Origin: Lachnospiraceae bacterium
GTDB lineage: Bacteria > Bacillota > Clostridia > Lachnospirales > Lachnospiraceae
Direction: 5' to 3'
DNA: 32,000 nt
Assembly (NCBI GenBank): GCA_021770755.1
Contig: JAETQI010000021.1
Span: forward strand, 29,379-61,378
Under the pieces are notes generated by a model. The model saw nothing but the letters and a program-made list of their open reading frames with translations, searched no databases and was not told where the DNA came from. Below are positions 1 through 21,732 of this stretch, in pieces (position 1 is the first letter of the stretch; each line of letters opens with the position of its first letter). The position numbers and the translations under genes are program-made.

Positions 1-1758
1 AGAAAGTCCTTGTCCTATGGGGTGTGCTCCGAACATGTCCTTCAGGAACTGGAATCAGACCGCTATGCATCGGATGGATTGATGCTGGATATCCTTCTGC
101 AGCGTCTGGGACAATCCCCCGATAAGTTTGAGATGGTATTAGGCAGCAAACTGTTCAATATGATCCGACTGCGTGATCTGATCGAAGAAGCTGTTTACCG
201 CGGGAAAAGAAAACTGGCAGAACTGCTGCTGCAAAATTATCCGTCACGTACCCATGTCGATGAGATGTATCATCACCGCATGGAGGCATTTCTCATTTAT
301 CACATGGACGGAAACTGCGCGCTCGCGGCAGAACACCTGCACAGATCCATTATCCGCACGCTTCCTGCGTATTCTTATGAACACTTTTATGACCAGATGG
401 AACGCTATCTTCTTTCCACCGTGGAGCTGGAAAACCTGCTCGCCCTCGAACGGATGCATCTTGAAGCGGATCCCGGGGTCAGCTCGATCTTGCCGGTCTC
501 GAAACACCATCTCGAACGCTGTATGAATTATATTGAAAACCATTTCAGTGATGACGAGGAGCGTGCAAAGCTTATCAGCAAATGCGCATGGCTGACCGCA
601 AGGATCTGTTATCTGGAAAAAGACTATATGCAGGCTATTGTTTCCTGCAAAAAGGGTGTGGCACAACTGCGGAAAAATACGATCCTGTATTTTATGCTGC
701 CTCTGCTGGAACTGATGGTGCGATCAGAGACGGCACTTGGCATCGCACCGGATCGGAGCAAATGGGTACAATATTATGATATATTGACCTTCTTATGGAA
801 AGGGTATACCCCAAAGTGGTATCCGACAGACGCATTGCTTCACAATTGCTGTCAGAGGGACTATCATCTGGATCATGAGCTGATCCGGTCCGAGCGGGAA
901 TCAAAACGTATGACACAGGCACAGCTTGCAGCCGATATCTATCAGAACACGGAATCCCTCTCGCGTGTAGAGACCGGAACAGTAGCTCCGAACAATAAGA
1001 CCTTTGAGAAGATCATGGATAAGCTGGGACTGGAAAAGCGCAGATACAACGGGTGTGTTATCACCAGATCCTTTGAGGTGATGGAGCTGAAACGTAGTAT
1101 CGACGGTTTTCTGATGCGCCGGAATTATCAACAGGCAAGGGAGGCAACTGACAGACTGAAAAGCGCCCTTGATATGGAAATATCAGAAAACCAAATGGTC
1201 GTCAGCCTCTATGAAATTCTCACAGCGAAAGCTCTTGATGAAATGACATCAGCGGAAGCTCTTGAACAGTTAAAAAAATTGTCGGGAAGATTTATGCGGT
1301 TTGAAGAGAAAACTTTCTCACATATTCCTATGAGAAACGAGGTTCTGGTCATCAATAATATCTGTATTTCCCTATGCGGAACCGGACGCTGGGACGAGGC
1401 AGTTGATCTATATCGGATCGCATTAGAAAAAATAAGAAGCAGTAAGGTCGACGTAAAATACAGATACCGCTCTTATCAGCTCCTATACAATAATTATATA
1501 CATGAACACCAGGGCAAAGATATCGTGGAAGCGCTTGAGGAATTGCAGTTGGAATTCCTGTGTGGGAAGGCTATGACACTCCCCCTTTGTATCGATAACA
1601 TTTTACAAATATTGATCAGAAATGATGTTCCCATAAAAGACTGTGATGAGTGGATAAAAGCAGTATATTATATATGTGACTTGTTTTACTTCGAAAAAGA
1701 TAAGCAGATATATAAACAATTTCTTGAAAATAGTCGTTCTATAGAACTTATAGATTAG
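1..1758 (+). CDS. XRE-type HTH + TPR-like transcriptional regulator (RNPP/Rgg-like) with two HTH-repeat modules in one frame; 5' partial
   Basis: The frame is open from position 1 (aga aag tcc ttg...), so the listed TTG at 10 is not the true start. The N-terminus is the tail of HTH-1 (GVCSEHVLQELESDRYASDGLMLDILLQRLGQSPDKFE). A complete second HTH sits at aa ~300-345 (MTQAQLAADIYQNTESLSRVETGTVAPNNKTFEKIMDKLG, ATG at 910). Each HTH is followed by ~230-250 aa of helical-repeat sequence. Stop TAG at 1756-1758. Confidence 0.7.
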   Translation, partial: RKSLSYGVCSEHVLQELESDRYASDGLMLDILLQRLGQSPDKFEMVLGSKLFNMIRLRDLIEEAVYRGKRKLAELLLQNYPSRTHVDEMYHHRMEAFLIYHMDGNCALAAEHLHRSIIRTLPAYSYEHFYDQMERYLLSTVELENLLALERMHLEADPGVSSILPVSKHHLERCMNYIENHFSDDEERAKLISKCAWLTARICYLEKDYMQAIVSCKKGVAQLRKNTILYFMLPLLELMVRSETALGIAPDRSKWVQYYDILTFLWKGYTPKWYPTDALLHNCCQRDYHLDHELIRSERESKRMTQAQLAADIYQNTESLSRVETGTVAPNNKTFEKIMDKLGLEKRRYNGCVITRSFEVMELKRSIDGFLMRRNYQQAREATDRLKSALDMEISENQMVVSLYEILTAKALDEMTSAEALEQLKKLSGRFMRFEEKTFSHIPMRNEVLVINNICISLCGTGRWDEAVDLYRIALEKIRSSKVDVKYRYRSYQLLYNNYIHEHQGKDIVEALEELQLEFLCGKAMTLPLCIDNILQILIRNDVPIKDCDEWIKAVYYICDLFYFEKDKQIYKQFLENSRSIELID

Positions 1759-1834: not shown

Positions 1835-2005
1835 TTAGTATCCACTTTCAATTGAAGGAAAACTCGGACATTCTTCACTGCATACTGATATAGCATTTTT
1901 ATCCTGACTTCTTTCCAGACTTACTTTATATCCAGATGCAGAAACGACTACTGCCATAAGAGTTGAGAATAAAATTGTTTGTACGATTGTTTTTACTTTT
2001 TTCAT
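1835..2005 (-). CDS. Small secreted peptide (56 aa) with Sec-type signal peptide; candidate propeptide pheromone
   Basis: Below the ORF-track cutoff. ATG at 2005-2003, TAA at 1837-1835. My translation: MKKVKTIVQTILFSTLMAVVVSASGYKVSLERSQDKNAISVCSEECPSFPSIESGY. It has a basic n-region, a hydrophobic h-region and a VSA/SG cleavage-like site. AAAGGAA lies ~9 nt upstream of the ATG, and a TATAAT (minus strand, 2070-2065) lies further upstream. Confidence 0.5.
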   Translation of the reverse strand: MKKVKTIVQTILFSTLMAVVVSASGYKVSLERSQDKNAISVCSEECPSFPSIESGY

Positions 2006-2084: not shown

Positions 2085-2149
2085 AAAGTACATGACTTTT
2101 TGCATATAATAAAAAAGAATTTTTTTGTATGTAAGAAGTCATGTACTTT
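2085..2149. promoter_or_regulatory. Perfect 14-bp inverted repeat in the divergent promoter region (candidate operator or activator site)
   Basis: aaagtacatgactt (2085-2098) is the exact reverse complement of aagtcatgtacttt (2136-2149). The 37-nt AT-rich spacer contains TATAAT (2105-2110). The right arm is followed by T7. Confidence 0.5.
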
Positions 2150-2229: not shown

Positions 2230-2313
2230 ATGAAAATCGTTTGTAAACCAGTAAAAGTAAAGGTAAATTCCCACGAAGAAGGTCCTTTATGCTGCAACGG
2301 CGTACAATTCTAA
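2230..2313 (+). CDS. Candidate RiPP precursor peptide (27 aa)
   Basis: Below the ORF-track cutoff. ATG 2230, TAA 2311-2313. My translation: MKIVCKPVKVKVNSHEEGPLCCNGVQF. A strong SD (gagaggaggt) ends 6 nt before the ATG. The gene lies 77 nt upstream of, and co-directional with, the radical-SAM/SPASM gene. Confidence 0.65.
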   Translation: MKIVCKPVKVKVNSHEEGPLCCNGVQF

Positions 2314-2327
2314 CATCGTAACTTACA

Positions 2328-2372
2328 GATCAAGCAGGAGACCTTGACCATGTCAAAGCCTTCTGCTTGATC
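2328..2372 (+). promoter_or_regulatory. Intercistronic stem-loop between precursor and maturase genes (candidate attenuator or stabiliser)
   Basis: gatcaagcag (2328-2337) pairs with ctgcttgatc (2363-2372). The stem extends about 3 more pairs including one G-U. The loop is ~20 nt and there is no U-tract. Confidence 0.5.
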
Positions 2373-2390: not shown

Positions 2391-3575
2391 ATGAAAGAAT
2401 CAATATTTAATTACCACTTCTTAATAAATAATAAGGAATACATTTTCAACACGAACAATGGCGGTTTGATAGAAATAAATCCCAATGGTTTTACTGATGA
2501 AGAAAAAAAGATTTTAAGTGAAAACCGCTTTTGGGTCGAGGATCAGTACGACGAAGTCTGCGAACTGGAAAAAGAAATAAATGAAAATATTCAACAAGGT
2601 AGTGAAGATCTAACGCTCACGCTCGCCCTGACATATCAATGCAATTTTCATTGCGTATATTGTTTTGAAGATAAGAATGACAAGGTCATGGAAAAAGAAA
2701 CAGCACAGGAAATCATTGAAAAAGTCGCGCAGATATTGTCCGAACATAAGTATAACAGATTAAGAATACATTATTACGGTGGCGAGCCTCTCTTAAATTT
2801 AGATGTATTGCTTTATTTTCATGAGAGGTTCAAAATAATTTCCGAAAATACAGGAATTCCATACAAACCATGTCTTACTACAAATGGATCCATGCTGACA
2901 AATGAATTGATTTCTTCCTTGAATTTTGATACAATACAATTAACATTCGATGGCTTAGCAAAAACACATAACAGCCTTAGAGTTTCAGATATATTTCGCT
3001 TTGACGAACAGGTACAATTGCTGGGGAGGATTCTGGAACATTCTGATACTCAGATACGATTCCGTGTCAATCTATGCCGGCAGAATAGAATTGAAGTCAT
3101 GGAATTATATCATTATATTACAGAAAAATACGGAAAGAAAAGAATCTTATTTATTCCAAACAGAATGATAAAATTCCATGAAGAAGATCAGTTTGACATG
3201 CTTAGTATAAAAGAATATTCAGATGCGTTATTAGAAATAAAGGATGCACTGTCTGATGAGTATAAGCTTCCAACTCCGGAAAGAACCCCTTGCAGTTTTG
3301 TGTGCAGAAATGCATTTTCAATTGATACAGACGGGAACTGCGATTTTTGCGAGACAACGAAGGAAAAGAAGAGTTACAAATTCAAAGATATTGATGTGCG
3401 TAAAAAGAGAGCAATCCACTTTCGGGAGGAATGCAGAAACTGCAAGTGTCTTCCAATCTGTCTGGGAGGCTGTGTCGTTCAATATAACCTCAATGCAGGC
3501 TCCTGTACTTATGAGAAATATCATATGGAGCATATCATAACGAAGTATCTCCAATCCGTCAATACCAATTCATGA
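2391..3575 (+). CDS. Radical SAM/SPASM-domain peptide maturase
   Basis: CX3CX2C cluster motif (YQCNFHCVYCFE), a GGEPLL motif, and a Cys-rich C-terminal SPASM-type region (CSFVC...CDFC...CRNCKCLPICLGGC...C). An ~85-aa N-terminal extension sits before the cluster motif, where RiPP recognition elements usually lie. AGGAGGT sits just upstream of the ATG. Confidence 0.9.
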   Translation: MKESIFNYHFLINNKEYIFNTNNGGLIEINPNGFTDEEKKILSENRFWVEDQYDEVCELEKEINENIQQGSEDLTLTLALTYQCNFHCVYCFEDKNDKVMEKETAQEIIEKVAQILSEHKYNRLRIHYYGGEPLLNLDVLLYFHERFKIISENTGIPYKPCLTTNGSMLTNELISSLNFDTIQLTFDGLAKTHNSLRVSDIFRFDEQVQLLGRILEHSDTQIRFRVNLCRQNRIEVMELYHYITEKYGKKRILFIPNRMIKFHEEDQFDMLSIKEYSDALLEIKDALSDEYKLPTPERTPCSFVCRNAFSIDTDGNCDFCETTKEKKSYKFKDIDVRKKRAIHFREECRNCKCLPICLGGCVVQYNLNAGSCTYEKYHMEHIITKYLQSVNTNS

Positions 3576-3597
3576 TAAGGAGTCCAAAATGAAAACA
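3553..3597 (+). repeat. 45-nt direct repeat, copy A (3' end of rSAM gene + RBS + first 3 codons of ABC gene)
   Basis: aatccgtcaataccaattcatgataaggagtccaaaatgaaaaca matches 8761-8805 at 42 of 45 positions. Confidence 0.9.
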
Positions 3598-5163
3598 AAA
3601 GTGCTGAAAAAATACCCCATCCAGGTTCTGATGATGACAGTCACGTTTCTGATCACGATGACGCTGCCCGTGCTGATGAGCTACCTGATCGACAATATTC
3701 TGGAATCAGGCGATATGCATACGCTGGTCCGGTGGTTTGCGGTCACATTCGGCGTGTCGGTCGTGGGATATCTGTTCAAATTCTATTTCTGTGAATATAC
3801 TCCCGTAAAACTGGGCATCAAAAATACATTTCAGCTACAGAAAAAATCCGCTTCGGATATCCTTAGGATGAATCAGTCCTTATATACGCAGAAGGACAAA
3901 GGATATTATTACAATGTCTGCTCCAATAGCTGCGCTTCTTACGGCGACCTGCATGAAGAGACCCGTCTGAGAATGATAAGCTGTCTGCTCTATATTTTTA
4001 GTATCCTTGCCGTTATTACCTGCGTGGATACCTTTTTTGGCATCTTTTTTCTGATCTACGGGGCAATTCTTGTCGTGATCTCCCTCAACAGCTCCAAGCC
4101 GCTCTATGCGATGCAAAAAGTAGTTTTGCCCACGCAGGATAAATATCTCAGCGGGATACGCAATATCATTGAGAACAAGGCTGGGATCAATGCCCTCCAT
4201 ACAGAGGATTACTTCGAACAAGAGTACACAAAATGTGTGGGAAATTACGAAAAATTTGTTCTAAGATATCGTTTCTTTGAATATTTCTGCAGTTATCTTC
4301 CCAGTATCATCAACCAGATATTTGGCGTGGCGTATCTGTTTATTGCCGCCGTGCTTGTATTTAAGGGAAATATCACCGCCGGCGTGCTGCTGATGGGATA
4401 TCAGTACCTTGGTTATTTCTCCAACCCGATCTCAACCGTGTGCGGTATCCTGATGCGCTACCGGTCAAACAAAATACATATTGAGCGAGTCGACGAGCTG
4501 ACGCTGGACGCAGAGAAGCCAGACGAGCTGACAGCGTATCGTACGGAGGAGGATACCATTTTTACAGCCAATGATTTTGATTTCTACAAGGGGAACCAGC
4601 CGGAAGATTTCCTGTATCACATTCAGCATATGGAACTGCAAAAAAACGGTCTGTATGTGATCAAAGGTGAAAACGGGAGCGGCAAAAGCATGCTGATGAA
4701 CCTGATCCTTGGAAATATCACACCCCGGAACTGCACCGGAAATTTCAGTGTATCAAAGGATACCGGCAATACTACATTTTTGACCTATCCTATTTTCACA
4801 GTTGACGGAAGCTTCGAGGATAATCTATACGAAAAACCTAAGATAGAGCACCTGATCAAAATGCTGGGCATTGATTTTGAAGAGAAAGAGATCACAAGCA
4901 ACCCGATCAACTTAAGCTACGGACAGCAGCAGAAGCTTGCCCTGTACAGGGTATTTGCGTCGGACACACCGGTCTTCTTTCTGGATGAACCGCTGTCCAA
5001 TCTGGATATCGAAACACAGGAAAAGGTTCTGGCATATATCAGGCATCTGAAAGGTACCAAAACGCTGCTTGTCGTCATGCACAGCAGCGAATTGGACGAC
5101 GCGGCGGATGATATCATACTGATCAAGGATCATCAGGCGACCATGATGAAGACAGGTGCGTAA
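3589..5163 (+). CDS. ABC transporter, fused permease/ATP-binding half-transporter
   Basis: Hydrophobic N-terminal half. Walker A GENGSGKS, signature-like LSYGQQQK, Walker B VFFLDEPLSNLD. No N-terminal C39 peptidase domain. Only a 13-nt gap after the rSAM gene. Confidence 0.9.
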   Translation: MKTKVLKKYPIQVLMMTVTFLITMTLPVLMSYLIDNILESGDMHTLVRWFAVTFGVSVVGYLFKFYFCEYTPVKLGIKNTFQLQKKSASDILRMNQSLYTQKDKGYYYNVCSNSCASYGDLHEETRLRMISCLLYIFSILAVITCVDTFFGIFFLIYGAILVVISLNSSKPLYAMQKVVLPTQDKYLSGIRNIIENKAGINALHTEDYFEQEYTKCVGNYEKFVLRYRFFEYFCSYLPSIINQIFGVAYLFIAAVLVFKGNITAGVLLMGYQYLGYFSNPISTVCGILMRYRSNKIHIERVDELTLDAEKPDELTAYRTEEDTIFTANDFDFYKGNQPEDFLYHIQHMELQKNGLYVIKGENGSGKSMLMNLILGNITPRNCTGNFSVSKDTGNTTFLTYPIFTVDGSFEDNLYEKPKIEHLIKMLGIDFEEKEITSNPINLSYGQQQKLALYRVFASDTPVFFLDEPLSNLDIETQEKVLAYIRHLKGTKTLLVVMHSSELDDAADDIILIKDHQATMMKTGA

Positions 5164-5188
5164 GGAACTCTGAAAAATAACGGAGAGG

Positions 5189-7228
5189 ATGGAGGTAAAA
5201 CAGTTGAATCTTCAGGAGGAAAAGGAACATTTACTTGTTGGTCTCAAAGCTTTGCAGGCTACGGCAGAAAAGCTGTTGAAAAAGGTGATGCACTACTCTG
5301 AAAATTACCGCGATTCTGCAAGATATGTCTGGGAGAGCCAGAGTGAATTTGATGAATACGAAGCGATCTTTAACCGGCTGCTGATCGACCAGGTAGTCGA
5401 TTCGGGGGAACAGACGAAAGAAAGGCTGCATCAGATCATCAAAATGATGGACTCTCCGTATTTTGCACGGATCGATTTTTTGATGGAAGAGGATCCGGAA
5501 CCCATGAAGGTTTACATTGGAAAATTTTCTTTCTGGGACGATAATGGTGAGTTCGAAGTATTTGACTGGCGTGCACCGATCTCCGGAATGTATTATGAGT
5601 ACGGATACGGAAATGCCCATTATGATGCACCGATGGGAAGGATCGAAGGGCAACTGGTCTGCAAGCGGCAGTACAAAATCAGCCGCGGAAATCTGGAGTA
5701 TGCGCTGGAGAGTGGTATCGGCATCAGTGACGAGATCTTACAGCAGGAGCTTGCAAAGAATGCGGATCATAAGATGGCAGATATCGTTGCCACGATCCAG
5801 AAGGAGCAGAATAAACTGATCCGGGATCTTTCATCAGATACACTGATCATTCATGGTGTTGCAGGTTCCGGCAAGACCTCTATCGCACTGCATCGGATCG
5901 CCTATTTTTTATACAAATATAAAGGTCAGATCACATCAAAGAATTTCCTGATCATCTCGCCAAACGGCGTTTTTGTCGATTATATTGCAGACGTCCTTCC
6001 AGAACTTGGCGAGGAGAATGTCAGATGCATTGCCATGGATGATATCGCGGAAAAAATTCTGGGAAAAGAATACCACTGCGAAAGAATGAATCTGCAGGCA
6101 GAACGGTATTTGCAAAGAGCCGAGGATACCGACTGGAAGAACAGAAACCAGTTTAAAAACTCTGTAGAATTTTTAAAACGATTAGATGATTATCTGCTGA
6201 AATGTGATAAAGAGAATTTTCAAGAAGAAGATTACCACTATGAGGGCGACATGGTCGAAGCTGCATATCTGCGAAAATGTTACGATATCAGGAAAGCACT
6301 GCCCGTAAGGGAACGGTTTCAGGAAATTGCCGCGCTGATATCCAGGGACATTCGGGAAGTTCACAGGAATGATCTGTTCGAGTGGCTGATGGAACGGTAT
6401 GACAGAAATCATGTACTGCAGCTATACCGGGATTTTTACGAAGATCTCGGTATGCCCGATTTTTTTCATTATGCGGAGGGCATGGAAATCGAAAGCTCGG
6501 ATGTTTTCCCGCTCGTATATGTGAAAATGTATCTGGAAGGTTTTATACGGGAACCGGAGATCAAGTACCTGATCATTGATGAAATGCAGGATTATTCACC
6601 GATCCAATATGCCGTCATCAATAAACTTTACAAGTGCAGAAAAACGATTCTCGGCGACTTCTGTCAGAATGTCGTTCCTTTTACAGGAAACCATTTTGAC
6701 TTTTTCCATCAGATGTATGCAAATGCGCAATTCATAGAAATTCATAAAAGCTATCGTTCCACTTATGAGATCATGAGCTATGCCGGGAAAATCAAAAAGG
6801 ATCAAAAACTTGATCCCATTGAACGGCATGGCAGTGAACCCTCTGAGGTCTCATTTGAGAGTCGCATGGACGAGGAAGCTTATCTGATCAGTGCAGTCAA
6901 ACGTGCACAGGCGGACAAGAAAAACGGCAAACTGGGCATTATCTGCAAAAGCCACCCGCAAGCGGAATCCTTGTTCCACACATTGTCTGGTGCTGGTGAT
7001 GTTCATCTGTTTACTTATGATACAGATGTGTTTTACAGTGGTGTGATCGTGACATCCGTATCACTTTCAAAAGGACTGGAATTTGACGAGGTCCTGATCG
7101 TGGACGCCGACCAGCAAAACTATTGTACACAATATGACCGCAATCTGCTTTATGTAGCGTGCACGCGGGCAATGCATCGTTTAAAGCTGCTTTATTGCGG
7201 AAAAAAGAGCAGATTTCTGGAAGGATAA
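5189..7228 (+). CDS. helD: HelD-type (helicase IV-like) UvrD/Rep superfamily-1 ATPase
   Basis: N-terminal coiled-coil-like segment, then YFARIDF...YIGK...DWRAPISGMYY. Walker A GVAGSGKTS, IIDEMQDYSP, KSYRST, and C-terminal SLSKGLEFDEVLIVDAD...LLYVACTRAMHRL. The start could instead be TTG 5204, which has better spacing to GGAGGT. Confidence 0.85.
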   Translation: MEVKQLNLQEEKEHLLVGLKALQATAEKLLKKVMHYSENYRDSARYVWESQSEFDEYEAIFNRLLIDQVVDSGEQTKERLHQIIKMMDSPYFARIDFLMEEDPEPMKVYIGKFSFWDDNGEFEVFDWRAPISGMYYEYGYGNAHYDAPMGRIEGQLVCKRQYKISRGNLEYALESGIGISDEILQQELAKNADHKMADIVATIQKEQNKLIRDLSSDTLIIHGVAGSGKTSIALHRIAYFLYKYKGQITSKNFLIISPNGVFVDYIADVLPELGEENVRCIAMDDIAEKILGKEYHCERMNLQAERYLQRAEDTDWKNRNQFKNSVEFLKRLDDYLLKCDKENFQEEDYHYEGDMVEAAYLRKCYDIRKALPVRERFQEIAALISRDIREVHRNDLFEWLMERYDRNHVLQLYRDFYEDLGMPDFFHYAEGMEIESSDVFPLVYVKMYLEGFIREPEIKYLIIDEMQDYSPIQYAVINKLYKCRKTILGDFCQNVVPFTGNHFDFFHQMYANAQFIEIHKSYRSTYEIMSYAGKIKKDQKLDPIERHGSEPSEVSFESRMDEEAYLISAVKRAQADKKNGKLGIICKSHPQAESLFHTLSGAGDVHLFTYDTDVFYSGVIVTSVSLSKGLEFDEVLIVDADQQNYCTQYDRNLLYVACTRAMHRLKLLYCGKKSRFLEG

Positions 7229-7239
7229 AGGAGGTATTC

Positions 7240-8742
7240 ATGAATAAAAATCGCAGATTACTGCAGCAATATCTTATAGAAAATATCGGGCTGGTCATTG
7301 CTTTGCTGACGCTTTCCATATTGATCAGTGTACTGAGTCTGACAGTGCCCTGGTTTATGCAGTATTTCACCGATACGGTCGTCATCGGCGGCGCGTGGGA
7401 ACATACAGGCACCGTGATCATCGCTTTTCTCGTCATCATCTTACTGCGGTTTGCGATCGATCTGATGTATGAACGGCTGATGGCTTATCTGGTTTTTCAA
7501 AAGATTACCTTGTCTCTCAGACAAAGAGTTGAGCATATCCTGATCTATATGAAATGCAGATACCTGTATAAAAAGAAAGAAGAGATCGCTGAGAAGGACA
7601 TTGAAACAATTCTGCTTGGAGATGTGGATGCTTTCAAAAATGTCTTGTCCCAGACGATCAAATTTTTTACAGAGGTGCTGAAACTGATCGTATACCTCTT
7701 TGTCCTGCTTTACTATTCGTTGCCTGTCGGGCTGATAGTATGCGCAAGAATCCCCGTCTATTATATTGTTTCCAATTTATATGACCGCCCACTGTCCACG
7801 CGAAGCGAGAAAAACCGGGCAGTCCAGTCAAAGCTGATCCAGAAGGTTAAGAAAATCTTTCAATCCCTGCCTGCCATCAAGACCTTTCAGATGGAATCGC
7901 GCGTTGAACAGGATCTGGATGGACAGGTGACAGACTATTGCAGGAATCAGGGAAAGATATCCATGCTCAACGCCGGATATCAGGAACTCAATACAGCGAT
8001 CAATACCCTGCTGAATGTCCTGGTTCTTGTACTGTGCGGCAGGGCGATCCTGCAGGGCAATATGACGCTTGGTACGATGATGCTGATCTCCAATATTCAG
8101 TCGCGAACGACCATGCCGCTATTTTTTTTCAACAATTACTATCTGCAGTATAAGAGCAGCTTTCCCGGAATATCCCGTCTGGTACGTTTTCTGGAGACAG
8201 AAACCGAAACTGCCGCATCCTGTCCTAATAAACCACACTTTGAGACACTGTCTCTGAGGAATGTGAGTTATTCGTATGTGGAGGGGCAATGTGCGCTGGA
8301 GAACTTTTCACTGGAGATCCGATCCGGCGATAAACTGATCCTGACAGGCGACAATATGGCTGGGAAGAGCACCCTTTTAAAATTGTTGGCGGGACTGCTG
8401 ACAGCCGACAAAGGGCAGATATTCATAGACGGAAAAGTATCCACGGATCATGAACTGCGAAATCTTGCGACACTTTTTCTTCAAAATCAAGACAGCTACT
8501 GCTATTTTGATCAGGAAGGTTCTGGCGGAGAAGTGCAGCTCATGAACCTGTCCATGATGCGTGATGTATCAAGCCCGCTGATCCTGCTGGATGAAGCGGA
8601 TGCAAGCATCAACCACAGCCGCCTGGATGAAGTCTATCAGTTTCTGGATTCCGATGCGACTGTCATCCTGGTCACCCACAGGAATACCGGGCACATTTTG
8701 CAAAAATACCCTAATGCGAGACTGATGCATATGAAAGCGTAA
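7240..8742 (+). CDS. ABC transporter, fused permease/ATP-binding half-transporter (second subunit)
   Basis: I chose the internal ATG 7240 (MNKNRRLLQQYL...), which follows AAGGAGG and lies 11 nt after the helD stop. Walker A GDNMAGKS, degenerate signature GSGGEVQ, Walker B ILLDEADASIN. The listed start at 7159 overlaps helD. Confidence 0.85.
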   Translation: MNKNRRLLQQYLIENIGLVIALLTLSILISVLSLTVPWFMQYFTDTVVIGGAWEHTGTVIIAFLVIILLRFAIDLMYERLMAYLVFQKITLSLRQRVEHILIYMKCRYLYKKKEEIAEKDIETILLGDVDAFKNVLSQTIKFFTEVLKLIVYLFVLLYYSLPVGLIVCARIPVYYIVSNLYDRPLSTRSEKNRAVQSKLIQKVKKIFQSLPAIKTFQMESRVEQDLDGQVTDYCRNQGKISMLNAGYQELNTAINTLLNVLVLVLCGRAILQGNMTLGTMMLISNIQSRTTMPLFFFNNYYLQYKSSFPGISRLVRFLETETETAASCPNKPHFETLSLRNVSYSYVEGQCALENFSLEIRSGDKLILTGDNMAGKSTLLKLLAGLLTADKGQIFIDGKVSTDHELRNLATLFLQNQDSYCYFDQEGSGGEVQLMNLSMMRDVSSPLILLDEADASINHSRLDEVYQFLDSDATVILVTHRNTGHILQKYPNARLMHMKA

Positions 8743-8760
8743 ATGTAACGCGGAATCGCA

Positions 8761-8805
8761 AATCCGTCAATACTGATTTATGATAAGGAGTCCAAAATGA
8801 AAACA
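8761..8805 (+). repeat. 45-nt direct repeat, copy B
   Basis: aatccgtcaatactgatttatgataaggagtccaaaatgaaaaca duplicates the rSAM-tail/RBS/ATG-AAA-ACA junction of 3553-3597, 19 nt after the second ABC gene stop. Confidence 0.9.
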
Positions 8806-8806
8806 A

Positions 8807-8932
8807 TTGGACGATATTGCAGACGGCGTTATACAGATCAAAGATCAGCAGGCGTCCATCATAAAAACTAAATGTAAATATAATACCTTTCAGTGCAAAC
8901 TGGCATGTTCCTCTGAGTGCCTGTGTTCGTAA
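8807..8932 (+). CDS. Cys-rich 41-codon frame (possible second RiPP precursor, or a frameshifted relic of one)
   Basis: My translation from TTG 8807: LDDIADGVIQIKDQQASIIKTKCKYNTFQCKLACSSECLCS, stop TAA 8930-8932. It is in the +1 frame relative to the duplicated ATG at 8797. That ATG frame gives only MKTIGRYCRRRYTDQRSAGVHHKN (stop at 8869-8871). The SD (8785-8790) is ~16 nt from the TTG, which is poor spacing. Confidence 0.4.
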   Translation: MDDIADGVIQIKDQQASIIKTKCKYNTFQCKLACSSECLCS

Positions 8933-8937
8933 AAGGA

Positions 8938-9924
8938 TCACAGCATCGAAGCCCGCAGCTCCTCCGCGCTCTTTGCACTCAGATACGACGGTGCGATGTC
9001 AAACACGGTCCTGCACCCGCTCTGCCCTTCCCCTGCCAGACGATGAGCCGCCCTCGCATAAGCGACGAGCACGCTCGCCGTGAATTCCGGATTGGAATCA
9101 AGCTTTAAGCTGTATTCGATCAGATGCCGGTTCTCCTTCTCCCAGCCGGTCACGCCGCTCCGCAGCACGAAACCGCCGTGCGGGATCCCGCTGTGATTGG
9201 CGAGAAGCTCCTCCTCGCTGATAAAGTGAACCGTCGTGTCGTAATCTGCAAAATAGTTCGGCATGGTCTTGATCTCCTCCTCGACCTTCGCCGCATCTGC
9301 CCCTTCCTCGAGCACAACGAAGCACTCGCGCGTATGCTTCTGCCTCGTCGTCAGCTCCGGGTTGCTGCCAGAACGCGCCGCCTCCAGCGCGGATTCGACA
9401 GGGATCGTGTACTGCTTCGCATTTCTGACGCCCTCGATCCGGCGGATCGCGTCAGAATGCCCCTGGCTGACACCTTTTCCCCAGAATGTATAGTCCTTTC
9501 CTTCCGGCAGGATCGCGTTCGCATACAGACGGTTCAGCGAAAACATACCCGGATCCCAGCCCACGGAAATGATCCCGATATGCGCATTCTCCTTTGCTGC
9601 CGCGTCCACCTTTGCGAAATGCTCGGGGATCTTTGCGTGCGTGTCAAAGCTGTCGACCACGTTAAAATACTTCACATACGCCGGCGTCTGTTCCGGCAGG
9701 TCTGTGGCGCTGCCGCCGCAGATGATCATCACGTCGATCCGGTCCTTCCACGCTGCCGCGTCCGATACCTTGCAGACTTTCGCCGTGTCCGTCAGGATCG
9801 ATACAGACGACGGATCCCTGCGCGTAAACACTGCCGCCAGCTCCATATCATCATTTTGTCTGACCGCGCACTCCACGCCGCGCCCCAGATTGCCATATCC
9901 TAAGATTCCTACCCGTGTACTCAT
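8938..9924 (-). CDS. ddh: meso-diaminopimelate D-dehydrogenase
   Basis: MSTRVGILGYGNLGRGVE..., GWDPGMFS, WGKGVSQGHSDAIRRI, MPHGGF and LDSNPEFTAS closely follow the Ddh sequence as I remember it from Corynebacterium. I chose the start at ATG 9924 after GGAGGAG; the listed 9969 start is an extension. Confidence 0.9.
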   Translation of the reverse strand: MSTRVGILGYGNLGRGVECAVRQNDDMELAAVFTRRDPSSVSILTDTAKVCKVSDAAAWKDRIDVMIICGGSATDLPEQTPAYVKYFNVVDSFDTHAKIPEHFAKVDAAAKENAHIGIISVGWDPGMFSLNRLYANAILPEGKDYTFWGKGVSQGHSDAIRRIEGVRNAKQYTIPVESALEAARSGSNPELTTRQKHTRECFVVLEEGADAAKVEEEIKTMPNYFADYDTTVHFISEEELLANHSGIPHGGFVLRSGVTGWEKENRHLIEYSLKLDSNPEFTASVLVAYARAAHRLAGEGQSGCRTVFDIAPSYLSAKSAEELRASML

Positions 9925-10075
9925 TTTTGTTCTCCTCCATGTTTTTAGTCGTTTTAGCTGCCCGTTCATATCACCTTGTCAGCAGTTCCCCCTGGTCTGT
10001 AACTCATATCTGTTCCCACTCTCTCTTTAATAACCGATATTCCAACCGCGTCTTCATCTTTCCATCATGCCATTC

Positions 10076-11222: not shown

Positions 11223-13217
11223 TCACATGATCTCCGCCCCTGACGGCATCGCTCTCTCCGGCGTCATCAGCGCGAGCTTTCCGTCCGCGTCCTCCGCGCA
11301 CAGGATCATGCCCTCAGACAGGACACCCGCAAGCTTCGCCGGTTTCAGGTTTACGAGCACCATCACCTTCTTGCCGACCATCTCCTCGGGACTGTAAAAC
11401 GCCTTGATCCCCGATACGATCTGCTTCACTTGGGAACCGATCTTCACCTGGCTGCACAGCAGTTTCTTTGACTTTGGCACTGCCTCACAGGAGATGATCT
11501 CTCCTACCTGAAACTGCATCCTGGTGAAATCCTCATAGGTGATCTCCGCCTTGGGTTCGATATCGATCACATCGGTAACATCCGTGTCATTTTCCGGCTC
11601 CTGCGCCGCACCCGCTTCTGTCCTCTGCCGGCTGGCAAGCTCCTCCACCTTCGCATCGATCTCCTTCGGGTCAAGACGCGCAAAGAGGATCTCCGGCGCA
11701 TCTGTCACCTTTGTGCCCGACGCGTAGACGCCAAATGTCTTTGTCGACTCAAAATCGCGGACTTCGCTGCCCAACTGCTTCATGATCCGCTGCGCAGTCT
11801 CCGGCATGAACGGCTCAAGTAGCCCTGCACCGATCGAGATGCCTTCCACCAGATTGTACAGGACAGTCGCAAGCCTGTCCTTCTTTGCCTCGTCCTTTGC
11901 CAGCACCCACGGCTCCGTCTCGTCGATGTATTTGTTGCAGCGCTTGAACAGGTTGAAGATCTCCGTCATGGCGTCGGCAACGCGCAGCTCTGCCATCTTT
12001 GCTTCCACCCTGTCATACGTCCCTGCAGCGACTGCCTTCAGATCCTCATCGACTGCCTCCGCGGCGCCCTTGTCCTCCACCACGCCGCCAAAATATTTGT
12101 TGCTCATGGAGATCGTCCTGTTCACGAGATTTCCGAGCGTATTTGCCAGGTCGGAATTCAGGCGCTCGACCATCAGATCCCACGTGATCGATCCGTCATT
12201 TTCAAACGGCATCTCATGCAGCACGAAATAACGCACCGCGTCCACGCCAAAAAGCGAGACAAGGTCATCCGCGTACATGATATTCCCCTTGGACTTGCTC
12301 ATCTTGTCATTGTTCTGCAGAAGCCACGGGTGTCCAAACACCTGGTGCGGGAGCTCCTCGCCGAGCGCCATCAGAAAGATCGGCCAATAGATCGTGTGAA
12401 AACGGATAATATCTTTTCCGATCAGATGCAGGTCTGCCGGCCACAGCTTTTTGTACTGCTCTGTGCTGTTTCCGTCCGCGTCATAGCCGATGCCCGTGAT
12501 ATAGTTTGTGAGCGCGTCGAGCCACACGTAAACGACATGCTTGTCGTCAAAGTCAACAGGTATCCCCCACTTGAACGAAGTGCGCGACACACACAGATCC
12601 TGCAGGCCGGGAAGCAGGAAATTGTTCATCATCTCGTTTTTGCGCGATACAGGCTGGATAAACTCCGGGTGCCTGTTGATGTGGTCGATCAGCCTGTCCG
12701 CATACTTGCTCATCTTGAAGAAGTACGCCTCCTCCTTCGCCGGTTTTACCTCGCGCCCGCAATCCGGGCACTTGCCGTCCCTGAGCTGCGACTCCGTCCA
12801 GAAGGACTCACAGGGCGTGCAGTACATTCCCTCGTACGCCCCCTTGTAGATATCGCCCTGGTCATACAGGCGCTTAAAGATCTTCTGCACCTGTCTCTCA
12901 TGGTATTCGTCCGTTGTGCGGATAAACTTGTCATACGCAATGTTGAGCAGATCGCAGAGCCCGCGGATCGTTCCCGCCACACTGTCCACCAGCTCCTTCG
13001 GCGTCACGCCCGCCTCCGCCGCCTTGAGCTCGATCTTCTGACCATGCTCGTCCGTACCTGTCTGGAAAAAGACGTCGTAGCCGTCCTTCCGCTTATAGCG
13101 CGCTATGCTGTCCGCCAGCACGATCTCATAATTGTTTCCGATATGCGGCTTTCCGGAAGTGTACGCAATCGCCGTCGTGATATAATATTTTCCTTTATTC
13201 TGCATTGTCGCCATCAC
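11223..13217 (-). CDS. metG: Methionine--tRNA ligase with C-terminal tRNA-binding (EMAP/Trbp111-like) domain
   Basis: HIGH-type motif (KPHIGN), KMSKS motif (DKMSKSKGN), a Zn-knuckle-like CPDCG, and a C-terminal OB-fold tail (KLLCSQVKIG...VNLKPAKLAGVLSEGMIL). The exact start among the first Met/Val codons is uncertain. Confidence 0.95.
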   Translation of the reverse strand: MMATMQNKGKYYITTAIAYTSGKPHIGNNYEIVLADSIARYKRKDGYDVFFQTGTDEHGQKIELKAAEAGVTPKELVDSVAGTIRGLCDLLNIAYDKFIRTTDEYHERQVQKIFKRLYDQGDIYKGAYEGMYCTPCESFWTESQLRDGKCPDCGREVKPAKEEAYFFKMSKYADRLIDHINRHPEFIQPVSRKNEMMNNFLLPGLQDLCVSRTSFKWGIPVDFDDKHVVYVWLDALTNYITGIGYDADGNSTEQYKKLWPADLHLIGKDIIRFHTIYWPIFLMALGEELPHQVFGHPWLLQNNDKMSKSKGNIMYADDLVSLFGVDAVRYFVLHEMPFENDGSITWDLMVERLNSDLANTLGNLVNRTISMSNKYFGGVVEDKGAAEAVDEDLKAVAAGTYDRVEAKMAELRVADAMTEIFNLFKRCNKYIDETEPWVLAKDEAKKDRLATVLYNLVEGISIGAGLLEPFMPETAQRIMKQLGSEVRDFESTKTFGVYASGTKVTDAPEILFARLDPKEIDAKVEELASRQRTEAGAAQEPENDTDVTDVIDIEPKAEITYEDFTRMQFQVGEIISCEAVPKSKKLLCSQVKIGSQVKQIVSGIKAFYSPEEMVGKKVMVLVNLKPAKLAGVLSEGMILCAEDADGKLALMTPERAMPSGAEIM

Positions 13218-13366
13218 CTTTCCTTCGCTATACTTATAAAATAACCCAATTATCTATAATTTACCATACTCGGGAGGCTTTGTAAATGAAAATGCGATCG
13301 TACTTCAATCCTGCGCAAGCTGTATCGGTTTGACACGGAAAGATCTGCCCTCCAGATCATAAATAC

Positions 13367-13678
13367 CTATGAACTGCGCCCCGAAAAAATCTTTGTAATA
13401 TCCTGATACCGATTCACCACCCGATAAATCTCAACTGCCTCTTTAAAAGCCTTATACATCACAACATAATCATTCCAAACCACATACTTATAATCTGTCT
13501 TAAAGCTCACACGTTTAGACAAATCTGCGCCAATATAAGGAAACTGCTGTATATTTTCAAACTGCTTATAAATCTCCTGAACTGTTTCTGATGCTTTATC
13601 AGCATTATCTTCTGCAATAAAATTTTTGATAGCTTTTAAATCTTCTGCAACTACTGGATTGATTCGCAATCTCACCAT
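13367..13678 (-). CDS. Type II toxin, ParE/RelE family
   Basis: About 103 aa, starting MVRLRINPVVAEDLKAIKNFIAEDN...YRVVNRYQD. It lies 4 nt downstream of the antitoxin stop, and a GGAGAG RBS sits inside the antitoxin's end. Confidence 0.8.
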   Translation of the reverse strand: MVRLRINPVVAEDLKAIKNFIAEDNADKASETVQEIYKQFENIQQFPYIGADLSKRVSFKTDYKYVVWNDYVVMYKAFKEAVEIYRVVNRYQDITKIFSGRSS

Positions 13679-13682
13679 AAAT

Positions 13683-13931
13683 TTACTCTCCAACTTTCGC
13701 TTTCAATTCATCCATTGTAAGCCATCCATTTCCGTCCTTGACAGCTTCCTCTGCCTCATGCAGTTTCTCCAACAGCTTTTTTTCTGCTTTTTCACGCTCG
13801 TAATCTTCTATATCCATTACCACAAATCTTCCTCTGCCATTTTTCGTCAGAAACACAGGCTCTCCAATCTGACAGTTTTTCAAAACCTCATTATAATTTC
13901 TTAAATCCGATACCGGTAATATACTTGCCAT
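13683..13931 (-). CDS. Type II antitoxin, Phd/YefM family
   Basis: 82 aa. MASILPVSDLRNYNEVLKNCQIGEPVFLTKNGRGRFVVMDIEDYE is the characteristic Phd/YefM N-terminal fold sequence. The C-terminal tail is acidic. Confidence 0.8.
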   Translation of the reverse strand: MASILPVSDLRNYNEVLKNCQIGEPVFLTKNGRGRFVVMDIEDYEREKAEKKLLEKLHEAEEAVKDGNGWLTMDELKAKVGE

Positions 13932-15575: not shown

Positions 15576-17153
15576 TTAACAAAAGCACTCGATCACACAC
15601 GAATGCTCCTTCGTCTTTTTATCATAATCAATTTCCACCAACAGCATCTTCCCTGCATAATCTTTCAGCGACTCGGGATACTGTTTCTTCCTGATCTGTG
15701 CGATCGCCGCCTCCGCGCTTTTGTCCCATTTCAGCTCCACCACGATCACGGGGCGGTTGGAGTGGTTTGCGCGGGGCAGATAAATAATGTCCGCAAATCC
15801 TTTCCCAGCGGGAAATTCCCGAATCGGTCTGTGATAATAAGAAAACGCTGCGATCAGCGCGATCATGACTGTGCAGGAGAGCGAATTTTCGTCATTGTAT
15901 TCGATACTGGACGTAAAATCATTATGCACACCCTGGATCAGTCTGGCAGTCCGCTCCCCGTCGCCTGCTATGACTGCCTCCAGAATCTCTTCGGAGAGCT
16001 TCATGAACTGTGCCATTCCGTCGTTTTTACTCCTTTTGACGGATTTGTAAAATACGGCATGGATCTCTTTGTTTGGTATATATGCCTCCTGTGTGTCCTC
16101 ATCGTAGGCGCAGTACCCCAGATGGATCAGCGCCGTGATCACCTGCTCCTTGTCCTCAAAGGTCTGCAGGTCATTGATGCCGTTATCCACCTCCACCGGT
16201 ATCCTGTTCCCTGAGAGCATCCTGATGATATCCTCCCGGAGTCCGTCAAAATTTTTGCAGATCAGGTCGTCGATATCCCCGTAAGTGCCCGTGACCGTCC
16301 AGTACTGCTGAAACCGTTTTGCGGAGACCGCACGAACGACGGACAGCGGATTGTACATCGCTGTTCCACCCAGATTGTATCCATTGTACCACTCTTTCAT
16401 CTGTTCAAAATCCACACCAGATCTCTCACAGAGCAAAAAGACTTCCTCCTCTGTAAATCCGATATCCTTTGCCAGATCCATCGGATTTATCATCGTATAC
16501 TCCATGAAATTATTGACGGCGGACTGTCCCTTCGTCCGCACGATCGGCATGATTCCCGTCAGATATGCCAATCGGATATATGATTTGGCAGCGTTGTTCT
16601 TGAACAATCCGCGCAGCATCTCGATATACGACAGTCTGTCAGTGTTACCCTTATCCAGTTCCCGTATGGGATAGTCCCACTCGTCAAAAATAATGACAAA
16701 ACGGCTCCCTGTCTCATGATAAATTTCGGACACCGCATTCATCAACGCCGTCTCTCCAGACACAATATCAGGATAGTCTTCCTGAAGTTCTTTCACAATC
16801 TTTCTGCTGATATAGCCGACCGGTTCCTCGTTCTCAAACTGTGCCGCCTTAAACTGTGCCTGGATATCCACAAAGATCGTGTCATATGCATTCATACTCT
16901 CGAGAAACAACGCATCTTTCATACACTTGAGCGGCTCAAACAGGCTCCTCGAATCCACCCCTTTGCTAAAATACGCGACAAGCATATCCGCCGTGACTGA
17001 CTTCCCGAACCGGCGCGCCCTGCTGTTACAGACAAATTTTTCCGTGATATCCTTTTTCAGCAGTTTGTTGATCAGCTCCGACTTGTCTACAAAATATTGC
17101 GTCTGGGAAAATTCCGCATAATTTTTATTTCCAATGTTTAAAAAAAGTCCCAT
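15576..17153 (-). CDS. AAA-ATPase-like (PF09820-type) + PD-(D/E)XK nuclease-like (PF08011-type) protein, paralogue 1
   Basis: N-terminus YFVDKSELINKLL...CNSRARRFGKSVTADMLVAYF is the predicted-AAA-ATPase signature. C-terminus GKGFADIIYLP...PVIVVELKWDKSAEAAIAQIRKKQY is a PD-(D/E)XK-like D...ELK motif. GGGAGGA RBS. Confidence 0.85.
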   Translation of the reverse strand: MGLFLNIGNKNYAEFSQTQYFVDKSELINKLLKKDITEKFVCNSRARRFGKSVTADMLVAYFSKGVDSRSLFEPLKCMKDALFLESMNAYDTIFVDIQAQFKAAQFENEEPVGYISRKIVKELQEDYPDIVSGETALMNAVSEIYHETGSRFVIIFDEWDYPIRELDKGNTDRLSYIEMLRGLFKNNAAKSYIRLAYLTGIMPIVRTKGQSAVNNFMEYTMINPMDLAKDIGFTEEEVFLLCERSGVDFEQMKEWYNGYNLGGTAMYNPLSVVRAVSAKRFQQYWTVTGTYGDIDDLICKNFDGLREDIIRMLSGNRIPVEVDNGINDLQTFEDKEQVITALIHLGYCAYDEDTQEAYIPNKEIHAVFYKSVKRSKNDGMAQFMKLSEEILEAVIAGDGERTARLIQGVHNDFTSSIEYNDENSLSCTVMIALIAAFSYYHRPIREFPAGKGFADIIYLPRANHSNRPVIVVELKWDKSAEAAIAQIRKKQYPESLKDYAGKMLLVEIDYDKKTKEHSCVIECFC

Positions 17154-18262: not shown

Positions 18263-18436
18263 TATTTCCTCTGCACGGGTCTGTTGCAATCGAGTAGTGG
18301 TATGTCCTTCTCCACTACTCGACGCGCCGGGCACCCGTCAGCGCATGCTGACACTCTTCCTCTGGGTGCCCATGTGCGATCGAGCCTGCGCGACCCGGGC
18401 GCCGCTCTAGCGGCATATTTCCTCTGCACGGGTCTG
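18263..18436. repeat. 132-nt GC-rich insert (18284-18415) bounded by perfect 21-nt direct repeats
   Basis: tatttcctctgcacgggtctg occurs at 18263-18283 and again at 18416-18436. The insert carries repeat-element copy 2 (core 18287-18377). Confidence 0.8.
18287..18377. repeat. GC-rich two-hairpin intergenic repeat element, copy 2 (inverted relative to copy 1)
   Basis: Its reverse complement reads gcacatgggcacccagaggaagagtgtcagcatgcgctgacgggtgcccggcgcgtcgagtagtggagaaggacataccactactcgattg. Hairpin 1 is conserved. Hairpin 2 has a different sequence but is still self-complementary (gagtagtgg/ccactactc). Confidence 0.75.
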
Positions 18437-21655: not shown

Positions 21656-21732
21656 TTTGATCCATTCCACCTTCCCGTTTGTCTTGTATTCATTGTATCA
21701 CGACAAGGAGCGCACACCAATACCAAATTAGC

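Follow-up and report, generated by a model that had tools for sequence, protein, structure and literature searches.

A class I HelD and an ABC exporter form a two-gene module, possibly conferring immunity at the level of RNA polymerase, in a strain-variable radical-SAM peptide locus of Lachnospiraceae

In a 32,000-nucleotide stretch of Lachnospiraceae bacterium DNA (GenBank assembly GCA_021770755.1, contig JAETQI010000021.1, forward-strand positions 29,379 to 61,378; here called the window), a gene for a HelD-type protein stands between two ATP-binding cassette (ABC) exporter genes, ABC1 and ABC2, in a locus for a peptide that is ribosomally synthesized and modified after translation (RiPP). 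The 679-aa product of this open reading frame (ORF; 5189-7228, + strand) is HelD, and the gene forms with its downstream neighbour ABC2 a module whose two genes have been acquired, lost and kept together. The locus itself is a strain-variable radical S-adenosylmethionine (radical-SAM, rSAM) RiPP locus, probably under quorum-sensing control, in which two unrelated types of peptide cassette, A and B, occur upstream of the module. HelD and ABC2 belong recurrently to the type B cluster family, and HelD is not specifically tied to the type A maturase, precursor and ABC1 genes that adjoin it in the window. The best reading of these patterns, which we offer as a tentative one, is that HelD-ABC2 may serve as an immunity module acting at the level of RNA polymerase.

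Results

HelD and ABC2 are gained, lost and kept together

The comparative evidence comes almost entirely from metagenome-assembled contigs (cited here by L numbers), in which the arrangements described recur in independent assemblies. A metagenome scan with the single HelD protein gave five close relatives, and a scan of GTDB genomes with a HelD alignment gave, among the matches listed, two close relatives and distant HelDs of many phyla. The HelD relatives of 73-86% identity all lie at the same site, upstream of a diaminopimelate dehydrogenase (DAPDH) gene whose product is 89-99% identical in all relatives at the site and which therefore anchors the locus. The gene content at this site varies, and ABC2 (78-91% identity) adjoins HelD in every intact relative, at a spacing of -8 to 14 nt. 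With REG standing for the regulator gene, SIG for a small divergent ORF, and the letters A and B for the cassette type of a precursor, maturase (rSAM) or further exporter (ABC1), the haplotypes are as follows.

Type A with module (window, L001, L098): REG, SIG, precursor A, rSAM A, ABC1 A, HelD, ABC2
Type B (L007, L095, L008, L010): REG, SIG, precursor B, rSAM B, HelD, ABC2 and, in some, a second exporter unlike ABC1 A (ABC1 B)
Deletion (L014, which is a GTDB species representative, L096, L097): nothing but HelD, ABC2 and ABC1 B
Decayed type B (L099): a deletion has fused REG and rSAM B into pseudogenes and left HelD-ABC2 intact
Degraded (L015): both genes of the module reduced to remnants, ABC1 B intact
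Damaged maturase (L002-L005): cluster as in the window, but with part of the interior of rSAM A deleted

The unit is delimited most clearly by two contigs conspecific with the window, L109 and L110, whose flanks are 98.4% identical to it at the nucleotide level over 3.7 kb. At the same site both contain REG, SIG, precursor A, rSAM A (76% amino acid identity) and ABC1 A (85%), and in a blastn comparison L109 aligns with the window up to position 5162 and again from 8936, HelD and ABC2 being absent as one block. Another type A cluster, found in a different genus at a different site (L106-108, maturase 52% identical), possesses the regulator, small peptide, maturase and ABC1 genes and also lacks HelD. 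Among the relatives found, the arrangement of the window, type A together with HelD-ABC2, occurs elsewhere only in L098 (and in L001, which has the same haplotype); this hybrid is common to two species, the window and L098 being 88.7% identical at the nucleotide level. The placement of HelD between two ABC genes is thus a mosaic seam, at which ABC1 belongs to cassette A and HelD-ABC2 is the resident module.

The remaining haplotypes document how the module persists when other genes are damaged or removed. The deletion haplotype has lost exactly the segment at L007 5169-8993, which joined the promoter and ribosome-binding region of REG to the start of HelD at a short repeat; its three representatives are 98.9% identical in nucleotide sequence to the full cluster, and the deletion is thus recent. 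After loss of the regulator, precursor and maturase, HelD-ABC2 is intact in L014, L096 and L097, and likewise in L099. In L002-L005, residues 232-344 of rSAM A are deleted (for example in L002 4687-5526), HelD is 100% identical and both exporters are kept; these strains are probably non-producers. In L008 (2874-5165) and L010 (2832-5123), ABC2 is split by an insert containing a GNAT acetyltransferase gene and a 91-aa ORF, with HelD and ABC1 B intact.

By their flanking DNA (about 98% nucleotide identity), L007, L008, L014, L095, L097 and L098 represent one species, a sister to that of the window, and within it the proteins encoded by the HelD-ABC2 alleles diverge by as much as 19%. By comparison, HelD and ABC2 are 99% identical between L095 (type B) and L098 (type A), whose flanks are about 98% identical to those of L007. 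Synonymous divergence (dS) within the sister species is 0.03 for DAPDH, 0.84 for HelD and 1.15 for ABC2. At this one locus the alleles of HelD and ABC2 are deeply diverged, as expected of bacteriocin and immunity loci. Within the window clade, the ratio of nonsynonymous to synonymous divergence (dN/dS) of HelD is 0.07-0.12, which indicates purifying selection, and that of ABC2 is similar.

The module recurs with the type B cassette

Precursor B is a 48-aa peptide ending AHSGSGSSFAHCYG that is unrelated to precursor A, and HS[GS][SC][GA]SSF[AV]HCYG is the core common to the type B precursors. Its maturase, rSAM B, is a 444-aa SPASM enzyme related to ACGX, and the only similarity to rSAM A is a weak partial tblastn match (about 50 bits, 25%). 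At the DAPDH site, type B occurs with HelD and ABC2 in L007, L095, L008, L099 and L100. The same company is kept elsewhere. L111, with an rSAM B of 69% identity, encodes precursor B, rSAM B, an ABC2 orthologue (60%) and a 695-aa HelD, with a divergent regulator; the gaps are -4 and 9 nt, and HelD and ABC2 are in reversed order, 9 nt apart. Its HelD is 47% identical to that of the window and scores 452 bits on the HelD model NF041464. In L114-116 (rSAM B 68%), REG, a small peptide gene, precursor B and rSAM B are accompanied by an ABC2 orthologue (54%), a split ABC gene and a HelD of 687 aa that is 50-51% identical to the window protein and scores 493 bits on the same model. Three lineages (L007/L095, L111 and L114-116) thus have HelD and ABC2 with type B, each at its own chromosomal site and in its own gene order. 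In L113, the most distant type B cluster (55%), a 314-aa protein of unknown family is encoded after the exporter (12888-13832) and is followed by transposase genes.

The initial annotation of this DNA had looked to co-occurrence of HelD with homologous maturase and exporter genes as a sign of a functional link. Such co-occurrence breaks down for type A, as L109, L110 and L106-108 lack HelD, but extends over three lineages for type B. The proposal that HelD belongs to a RiPP operon fares similarly: recurrence with type B and the operon-like layout speak for it, whereas HelD is separable from the type A set next to it in L109.

The window protein is a class I HelD

The protein encoded at 5189-7228 is a bona fide class I HelD, that is, an RNA polymerase recycling ATPase. 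It scores 494 bits on NCBIfam NF041464 (HelD_BACSU), above the equivalog cut-off of 419, and it matches the Pfam families UvrD-helicase, UvrD_C and AAA_19. A phmmer search of the PDB placed Bacillus subtilis HelD (6WVK_H) first with an E-value of 1e-98, the aligned parts comprising residues 77-418 and 437-677 of the window protein; in the clamp-arm region it lacks about 80 residues relative to B. subtilis HelD, whose residues 437-519 have no counterpart. Class II HelD/HelR models gave 119-136 bits against cut-offs of 750-1100, with coverage limited to shared residues at about 100-288, and these sub-threshold scores rule out membership in the HelR/class II group.

An AlphaFold model built on 16 relatives (pLDDT 78, pTM 0.72) has an N-terminal antiparallel coiled coil, formed by helices 9-53 and 56-87, and a helical insertion at about 283-450; the latter is a candidate clamp arm, although about 80 residues of the B. 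subtilis arm are unmatched. Searched with Foldseek, this model retrieved 6WVK_H first (E-value 6e-41, TMq 0.68), then mycobacterial HelDs, and then UvrD and PcrA. The translation contains the motif DWRAPIS, a Walker A motif (GVAGSGKTS) and a Walker B motif (IIDEMQD), of which GSGKT and DEMQD are invariant in the alignment of relatives. At its tip the arm has the acidic residues E49, D55 and E58, which do not vary across the 16 relatives, and the arm-tip motif WE-x-QSEFDE-YE aligns across relatives. The initial description of a full-length HelD with a coiled-coil arm, DWRAPIS and Walker A and B motifs is borne out by the translation, the equivalog score of 494 bits, the AlphaFold model and the Foldseek match to 6WVK_H.

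The intergenic gaps of 25 and 11 nt given in the same description are also correct when HelD is read from the ATG at 5189, as ABC1 stops at 5161-5163, HelD stops at 7226-7228 and ABC2 begins with the ATG at 7240. However, a TTG at 5204 is an alternative start, with GGAGG at 5191-5195 and a spacer of 8 nt, and the orthologues in L007 and L014, which lack the ATG, start at the equivalent TTG. Owing to the position of this Shine-Dalgarno sequence and to the starts of these orthologues, TTG 5204 is favoured and is the likelier true start, which would give a protein of 674 aa and a gap of 40 nt to ABC1. With the adjoining genes on the same strand and gaps of 25 or 40 nt and 11 nt, the placement of HelD is operon-like, and the gene is probably co-transcribed with its neighbours. 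The 32-kb window encodes no second HelD.

HelD relatives outside the clusters

Beyond the cluster clade, the closest HelDs (P0011, P0016 and P0034; 53-56% identity) are stand-alone proteins of Lachnospiraceae. Their neighbourhood, DUF4867-HelD with or without an aldo/keto reductase gene, is conserved in three species and includes no ABC, rSAM or regulator genes. In a neighbour-joining tree, the cluster HelDs (the window clade, L111 with P0066, L114, and P0068 with P0070, the P-numbered proteins being placed by sequence alone) lie on long branches; these and the shorter branches of the stand-alone group spread from a common node. One contig with the stand-alone DUF4867-HelD arrangement (L104, coverage 11.2) comes from the same European Nucleotide Archive sample, ERZ14651025, as a contig with the HelD-less type A cluster (L107, coverage 12.3); given the like coverage, the two may belong to one genome.

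Among 81 other HelD loci of many phyla, none has an rSAM homologue near HelD and two (L017 and L038) have full ABC exporters nearby. In L017 (9980-16050, a metagenome-assembled Bacillota genome) and L038 (10007-15953, Paenibacillus), two full-length ABC exporter genes lie downstream of HelD on its strand, and RiPP genes are absent. The gaps in these two loci are 280-340 nt and their ABC genes are 20-22% identical to those of the window. This arrangement may represent resistance by efflux combined with HelD. Several Firmicutes also have helD on plasmids, for example Bacillus safensis pBPL056 (L118, 6018-9115) and a Paraclostridium bifermentans plasmid (L117, 6728-9414). One plasmid-borne helD is divergent from a TetR/AcrR regulator gene and another is beside the small multidrug resistance efflux gene sugE; none of the plasmid contexts examined contains RiPP genes.

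Anatomy of the locus in the window

The features of the window, drawn from gene calls, Pfam and NCBIfam together with the analyses named, are listed below; all cluster genes are on the + strand unless stated.

10..1758, +: REG, regulator with a helix-turn-helix (HTH) and helical repeats (Pfam HTH_3, weak TPR), cut by the start of the window
1835..2005, -: SIG, a 56-aa ORF with a signal-peptide-like N-terminus in its translation, divergent from the precursor operon
2085..2149, no strand: inverted repeat with near-perfect 25-nt arms (2085-2109 and 2125-2149; AAAGTACATGACTTTTTGCATA...), between SIG and the precursor gene
2230..2313, +: type A precursor peptide of 27 aa, MKIVCKPVKVKVNSHEEGPLCCNGVQF, from sequence and translation, with a strong Shine-Dalgarno sequence upstream
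2328..2372, +: hairpin between the precursor stop and the rSAM A start, without a U tract (-26 kcal/mol, z -3.9)
2391..3575, +: rSAM A, radical-SAM peptide maturase of 394 aa (Pfam Radical_SAM, Fer4_12)
3589..5163, +: ABC1 A, exporter of the type A cassette, full-length with transmembrane domain (TMD) and nucleotide-binding domain (NBD) (Pfam ABC_membrane, ABC_tran)
5189..7228, +: HelD, class I (NCBIfam, phmmer, AlphaFold, Foldseek), start probably TTG 5204
7240..8742, +: ABC2, TMD-NBD exporter of 500 aa with a shortened NBD (Pfam)
5163..8935, +: HelD-ABC2 module, the 3.8-kb unit present in the window and absent from L109 (blastn)
8938..9969, -: DAPDH gene, convergent chromosomal flank (Pfam DAPDH_C)

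The regulator is 605 aa long where it is complete (L001 3508-5325), and genes of this family, encoding about 600-630 aa, head the type A and type B clusters in L001, L007, L095, L106, L109 and L114. The copies in L111 (7442-9337, - strand) and L114 (7538-9355) each have two separate HTH_3/HTH_31 stretches as well as helical repeats. REG seems to consist of an HTH-repeat module duplicated in tandem. A sequence search of the PDB with REG found no Rgg, PlcR or other RNPP relative, and the label 'RNPP-like' is one that we infer from its architecture. Homologues of SIG (52-56 aa) adjoin REG in clusters of both types (L007 7033-7191, L095 7767-7937 and L106 8488-8646, all on the - strand, and L109). 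The family has a Sec-type signal-peptide-like N-terminus and an acidic C-terminus with a Cys, and SIG is a candidate secreted pheromone pro-peptide that REG would sense. The inverted repeat, which has a folding energy of -36.3 kcal/mol as RNA (z -7.0), recurs in L007 at about 7285-7350 and is hence kept across species; it is a candidate operator for REG.

Members of the type A precursor family are also encoded in L109 (MKIIFNPVNEKKNVRLNDILCCNGIVF) and L106. The hairpin that follows the precursor gene probably sets the ratio of precursor to enzyme transcript, or else processes or stabilises the transcript. rSAM A fits no curated equivalog, its top NCBIfam matches being RiPP maturases far under their cut-offs, and its homologue family is small. 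ABC1 A accompanies rSAM A in L098 (91%), L109 (85%) and L106 (59%). In the NBD of ABC2, Pfam ABC_tran matches profile positions 1-55 only, and about 10 residues separate the Q-loop region from the SGGE signature. A promoter and terminator scan gave terminator-like matches near chance level (11, against the 6.5 ± 2.8 that shuffled sequence would give), too close to chance to speak for or against internal promoters.

The remainder of the window consists of ordinary chromosomal genes. Three paralogues of the PF09820 family of predicted AAA-ATPases lie on the - strand (15576-17153, 18407-20014 and 20066-21670) with small genes between them, and one of the three shows a weak PDDEXK_9 match. A ParE-family toxin gene (13367-13693, -) is situated between the methionyl-tRNA synthetase gene and these paralogues, and the small ORF upstream of it (13683-13931, -) is a probable antitoxin.

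Discussion

A radical-SAM peptide locus that includes a HelD raises the question of what an RNA polymerase recycling factor contributes to it. The arm of class I HelD reaches deep into the secondary channel of RNA polymerase and opens the clamp, and B. subtilis HelD raises rifampicin resistance by means of the acidic tip of this arm (PMC12802891). In actinobacteria, HelR, a class II HelD, is a target-protection factor of RNA polymerase (PMC10719064). By analogy with the action of B. subtilis HelD and actinobacterial HelR against rifamycins, HelD-ABC2 may form an immunity module with two layers, a reading that we prefer and hold tentatively. ABC2 would export the cluster peptide as the first layer. 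HelD, presumably made from the same induced transcript as the cluster genes, would insert its acidic-tipped coiled-coil arm into the secondary channel, open the clamp and use ATP to clear inhibited or stalled polymerase, or would shield the enzyme. The protection would be directed against the product of the cluster, most likely the type B peptide, whether the strain's own or that of neighbouring strains. Three features of the locus fit immunity genes: the module is kept after the regulator, precursor and maturase have been lost, it is kept after the cassette has been replaced, and its alleles are deeply diverged. As the type A set exists without HelD, the HelD of the window is more likely to provide cross-immunity to type B, or generic protection, than immunity to type A.

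Several observations weigh against an immunity role. Since type A clusters do without HelD, immunity to the peptide made from the window's own cassette cannot depend on it. The L015 copy of HelD is truncated, and forms of 580-581 aa are found on dozens of contigs of the sister species, a sizeable share, which together indicate that HelD is dispensable. The most distant type B cluster, L113, has neither HelD nor the regulator. Compared with stand-alone HelDs, the window HelD is not obviously specialised in its arm or motifs. The deletion variants arose very recently, and the retention of HelD in them may not reflect selection. Finally, bootstrap support for the mutual relations of the type B-linked HelDs is below 60%, so that they may go back to one ancestral cluster or to independent recruitments. 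On one point the same variants can be read either way: the initial annotation had counted the presence of HelD in an ABC context without maturase and precursor against immunity, and the order HelD-ABC2-ABC1 B in L014, L096 and L097 is such a context, but as recent deletion derivatives these contigs also fit orphan immunity.

A more mundane possibility, which we consider rather doubtful, is that ordinary recycling or hibernation of polymerase by HelD has been placed under a quorum-sensing promoter and so coupled to cell density, the target of the peptide being irrelevant. This would agree with the character of the protein, an ordinary class I HelD without specialised features, with its unchanged presence behind two unrelated cassettes, and with the deletion in L014, where HelD came to be driven by the regulator's own promoter. 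In addition, several expressed HelD paralogues of unexplained purpose are reported in many bacteria, and multiple paralogues are documented in Clostridia (PMC8655204). However, a housekeeping role of this kind leaves unexplained why HelD and ABC2 are constantly paired and are lost jointly (L109 and L015), and why HelD recurs only with type B while the stand-alone HelDs keep another conserved neighbourhood.

It is also conceivable, though unlikely, that HelD and its ABC exporter are an older pair for efflux and target protection against exogenous polymerase inhibitors, beside which RiPP cassettes have repeatedly been inserted, so that the link is only positional. HelD with two full ABC exporters and no RiPP genes is found in L017 and L038, the plasmid-borne helD genes beside a TetR regulator or sugE suggest accessory resistance roles, and at the locus itself the cassette is swappable and the module separable. 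Yet the wide gaps in L017 and L038 and the low identity of their ABC genes set them apart from the window. Moreover, HelD occurs with an ABC2 orthologue (54-60%) inside type B clusters at three sites in changed order, which argues that the whole cluster has moved.

The initial annotation had proposed self-immunity to the product encoded next to HelD, in which case HelD would protect against a type A peptide that blocks the secondary channel in the manner of microcin J25 (MccJ25) or capistruin. HelD is indeed co-directional with the type A genes at short gaps, and the combination of type A with HelD-ABC2 is conserved between the window and L098 under purifying selection. This proposal is nevertheless weakened by the type A clusters without HelD in L109 and L106: a conspecific strain and a different genus both carry the type A set without HelD or ABC2, and the peptide is a short Cys-containing rSAM substrate and not a lasso peptide. 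We therefore regard it as improbable. An anti-phage pair of the Gabija kind (a UvrD-like helicase with an ABC-type ATPase) is very improbable, as the PADLOC matches were weak and partial (GajB about 50 bits; GajA and other ATPases about 18-38 bits), whereas HelD scores 494 bits as an equivalog, ABC2 is a membrane exporter with a TMD, an OLD-family nuclease is lacking, and a scan of viral contigs with an alignment of the type B maturase found no relatives. A defence-system identity was rejected on these grounds, the PADLOC hits being generic UvrD and ATPase matches that the family assignments of HelD and ABC2 contradict.

Returning to the proposed immunity module, its HelD can be compared with those already characterized. 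It shares with B. subtilis HelD (6WVK, 6ZCA and 6ZFB) the N-terminal coiled-coil arm with an acidic tip, followed by a superfamily 1 ATPase core of domains 1A and 2A, in which the window protein has an insertion that may be a clamp arm. The two proteins are about 35% identical over the aligned parts (28% over the whole Foldseek alignment), and the window protein is shorter by about 80 residues in the clamp arm and about 9 in the N-terminal arm. Whereas B. subtilis helD is a stand-alone gene, the HelD of the window is embedded in a RiPP/ABC locus, where it is probably co-transcribed. B. subtilis helD is under convergent dual-promoter control (PMC12802891). The mode of action proposed here, a HelD-type ATPase protecting RNA polymerase, is that of the HelR proteins of Streptomyces venezuelae and Mycobacterium abscessus. 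These, however, are class II proteins with a primary-channel loop, induced through a rifamycin-associated element, in contrast to the class I HelD of the window in its peptide operon. The DUF4867-linked stand-alone HelDs of Lachnospiraceae are of the same length class and have the same motifs as the window HelD, but have shorter branches.

The locus as a whole has likenesses among known peptide systems. MccJ25 and capistruin act in the secondary channel of RNA polymerase, to which the arm of HelD also binds, and ABC export contributes to immunity. Immunity to these peptides is by export only (McjD), and no HelD is known to be involved. The peptides of the window and of type B clusters differ from these lasso peptides, being rSAM substrates with Cys-containing cores. 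In the pneumococcal blp locus, bacteriocin cassettes that can be swapped lie between conserved genes for regulation and transport, non-producers keep immunity and transport genes, and alleles are diverged within the species. The locus described here resembles blp in its swappable cassettes, in a module kept in probable non-producers and in its deeply diverged alleles, but differs in maturation chemistry, regulator type and candidate immunity protein. The streptococcal RaS-RiPP loci (Rgg/SHP, streptide) have a like layout of a regulator with a small signalling-peptide gene, a short precursor, an rSAM enzyme and an exporter (PMC13361665). The regulator of the window is unlike theirs, as it is a 605-aa double-HTH protein without a match to solved Rgg or PlcR structures, and its candidate signal has a Sec-type leader. 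The RaS-RiPP review (PMC13361665) mentions no helicase.

That a helicase in such clusters is undescribed, as first supposed, agrees with the literature: for RiPP and other biosynthetic gene cluster contexts, the papers searched describe no HelD or UvrD-type gene, in searches where 'HelD' also matches the word 'held'. HelD-type polymerase protection would thus be newly found here as a constant module in a locus for peptide biosynthesis. A bolder extension, which we think somewhat unlikely, is that the type B peptides are a new class of RiPPs targeting RNA polymerase or transcription, that the cluster HelD is the first HelD immunity protein encoded in a biosynthetic gene cluster, that the locus is maintained by the dynamics of producer, immune and cheater strains, and that strains of the window type keep HelD-ABC2 as cross-immunity while making another peptide.

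If the module does confer immunity, it marks a family of gut-commensal peptides as likely transcription inhibitors. This would provide a resistance-gene-guided lead to a new class of antibiotics and, at the same time, a natural function for HelD paralogues that are otherwise unexplained. Even if the module is not an immunity determinant, the locus illustrates modular evolution, in which the regulator, the peptide cassette, HelD-ABC2 and a second exporter are swapped, lost or kept independently within a species.

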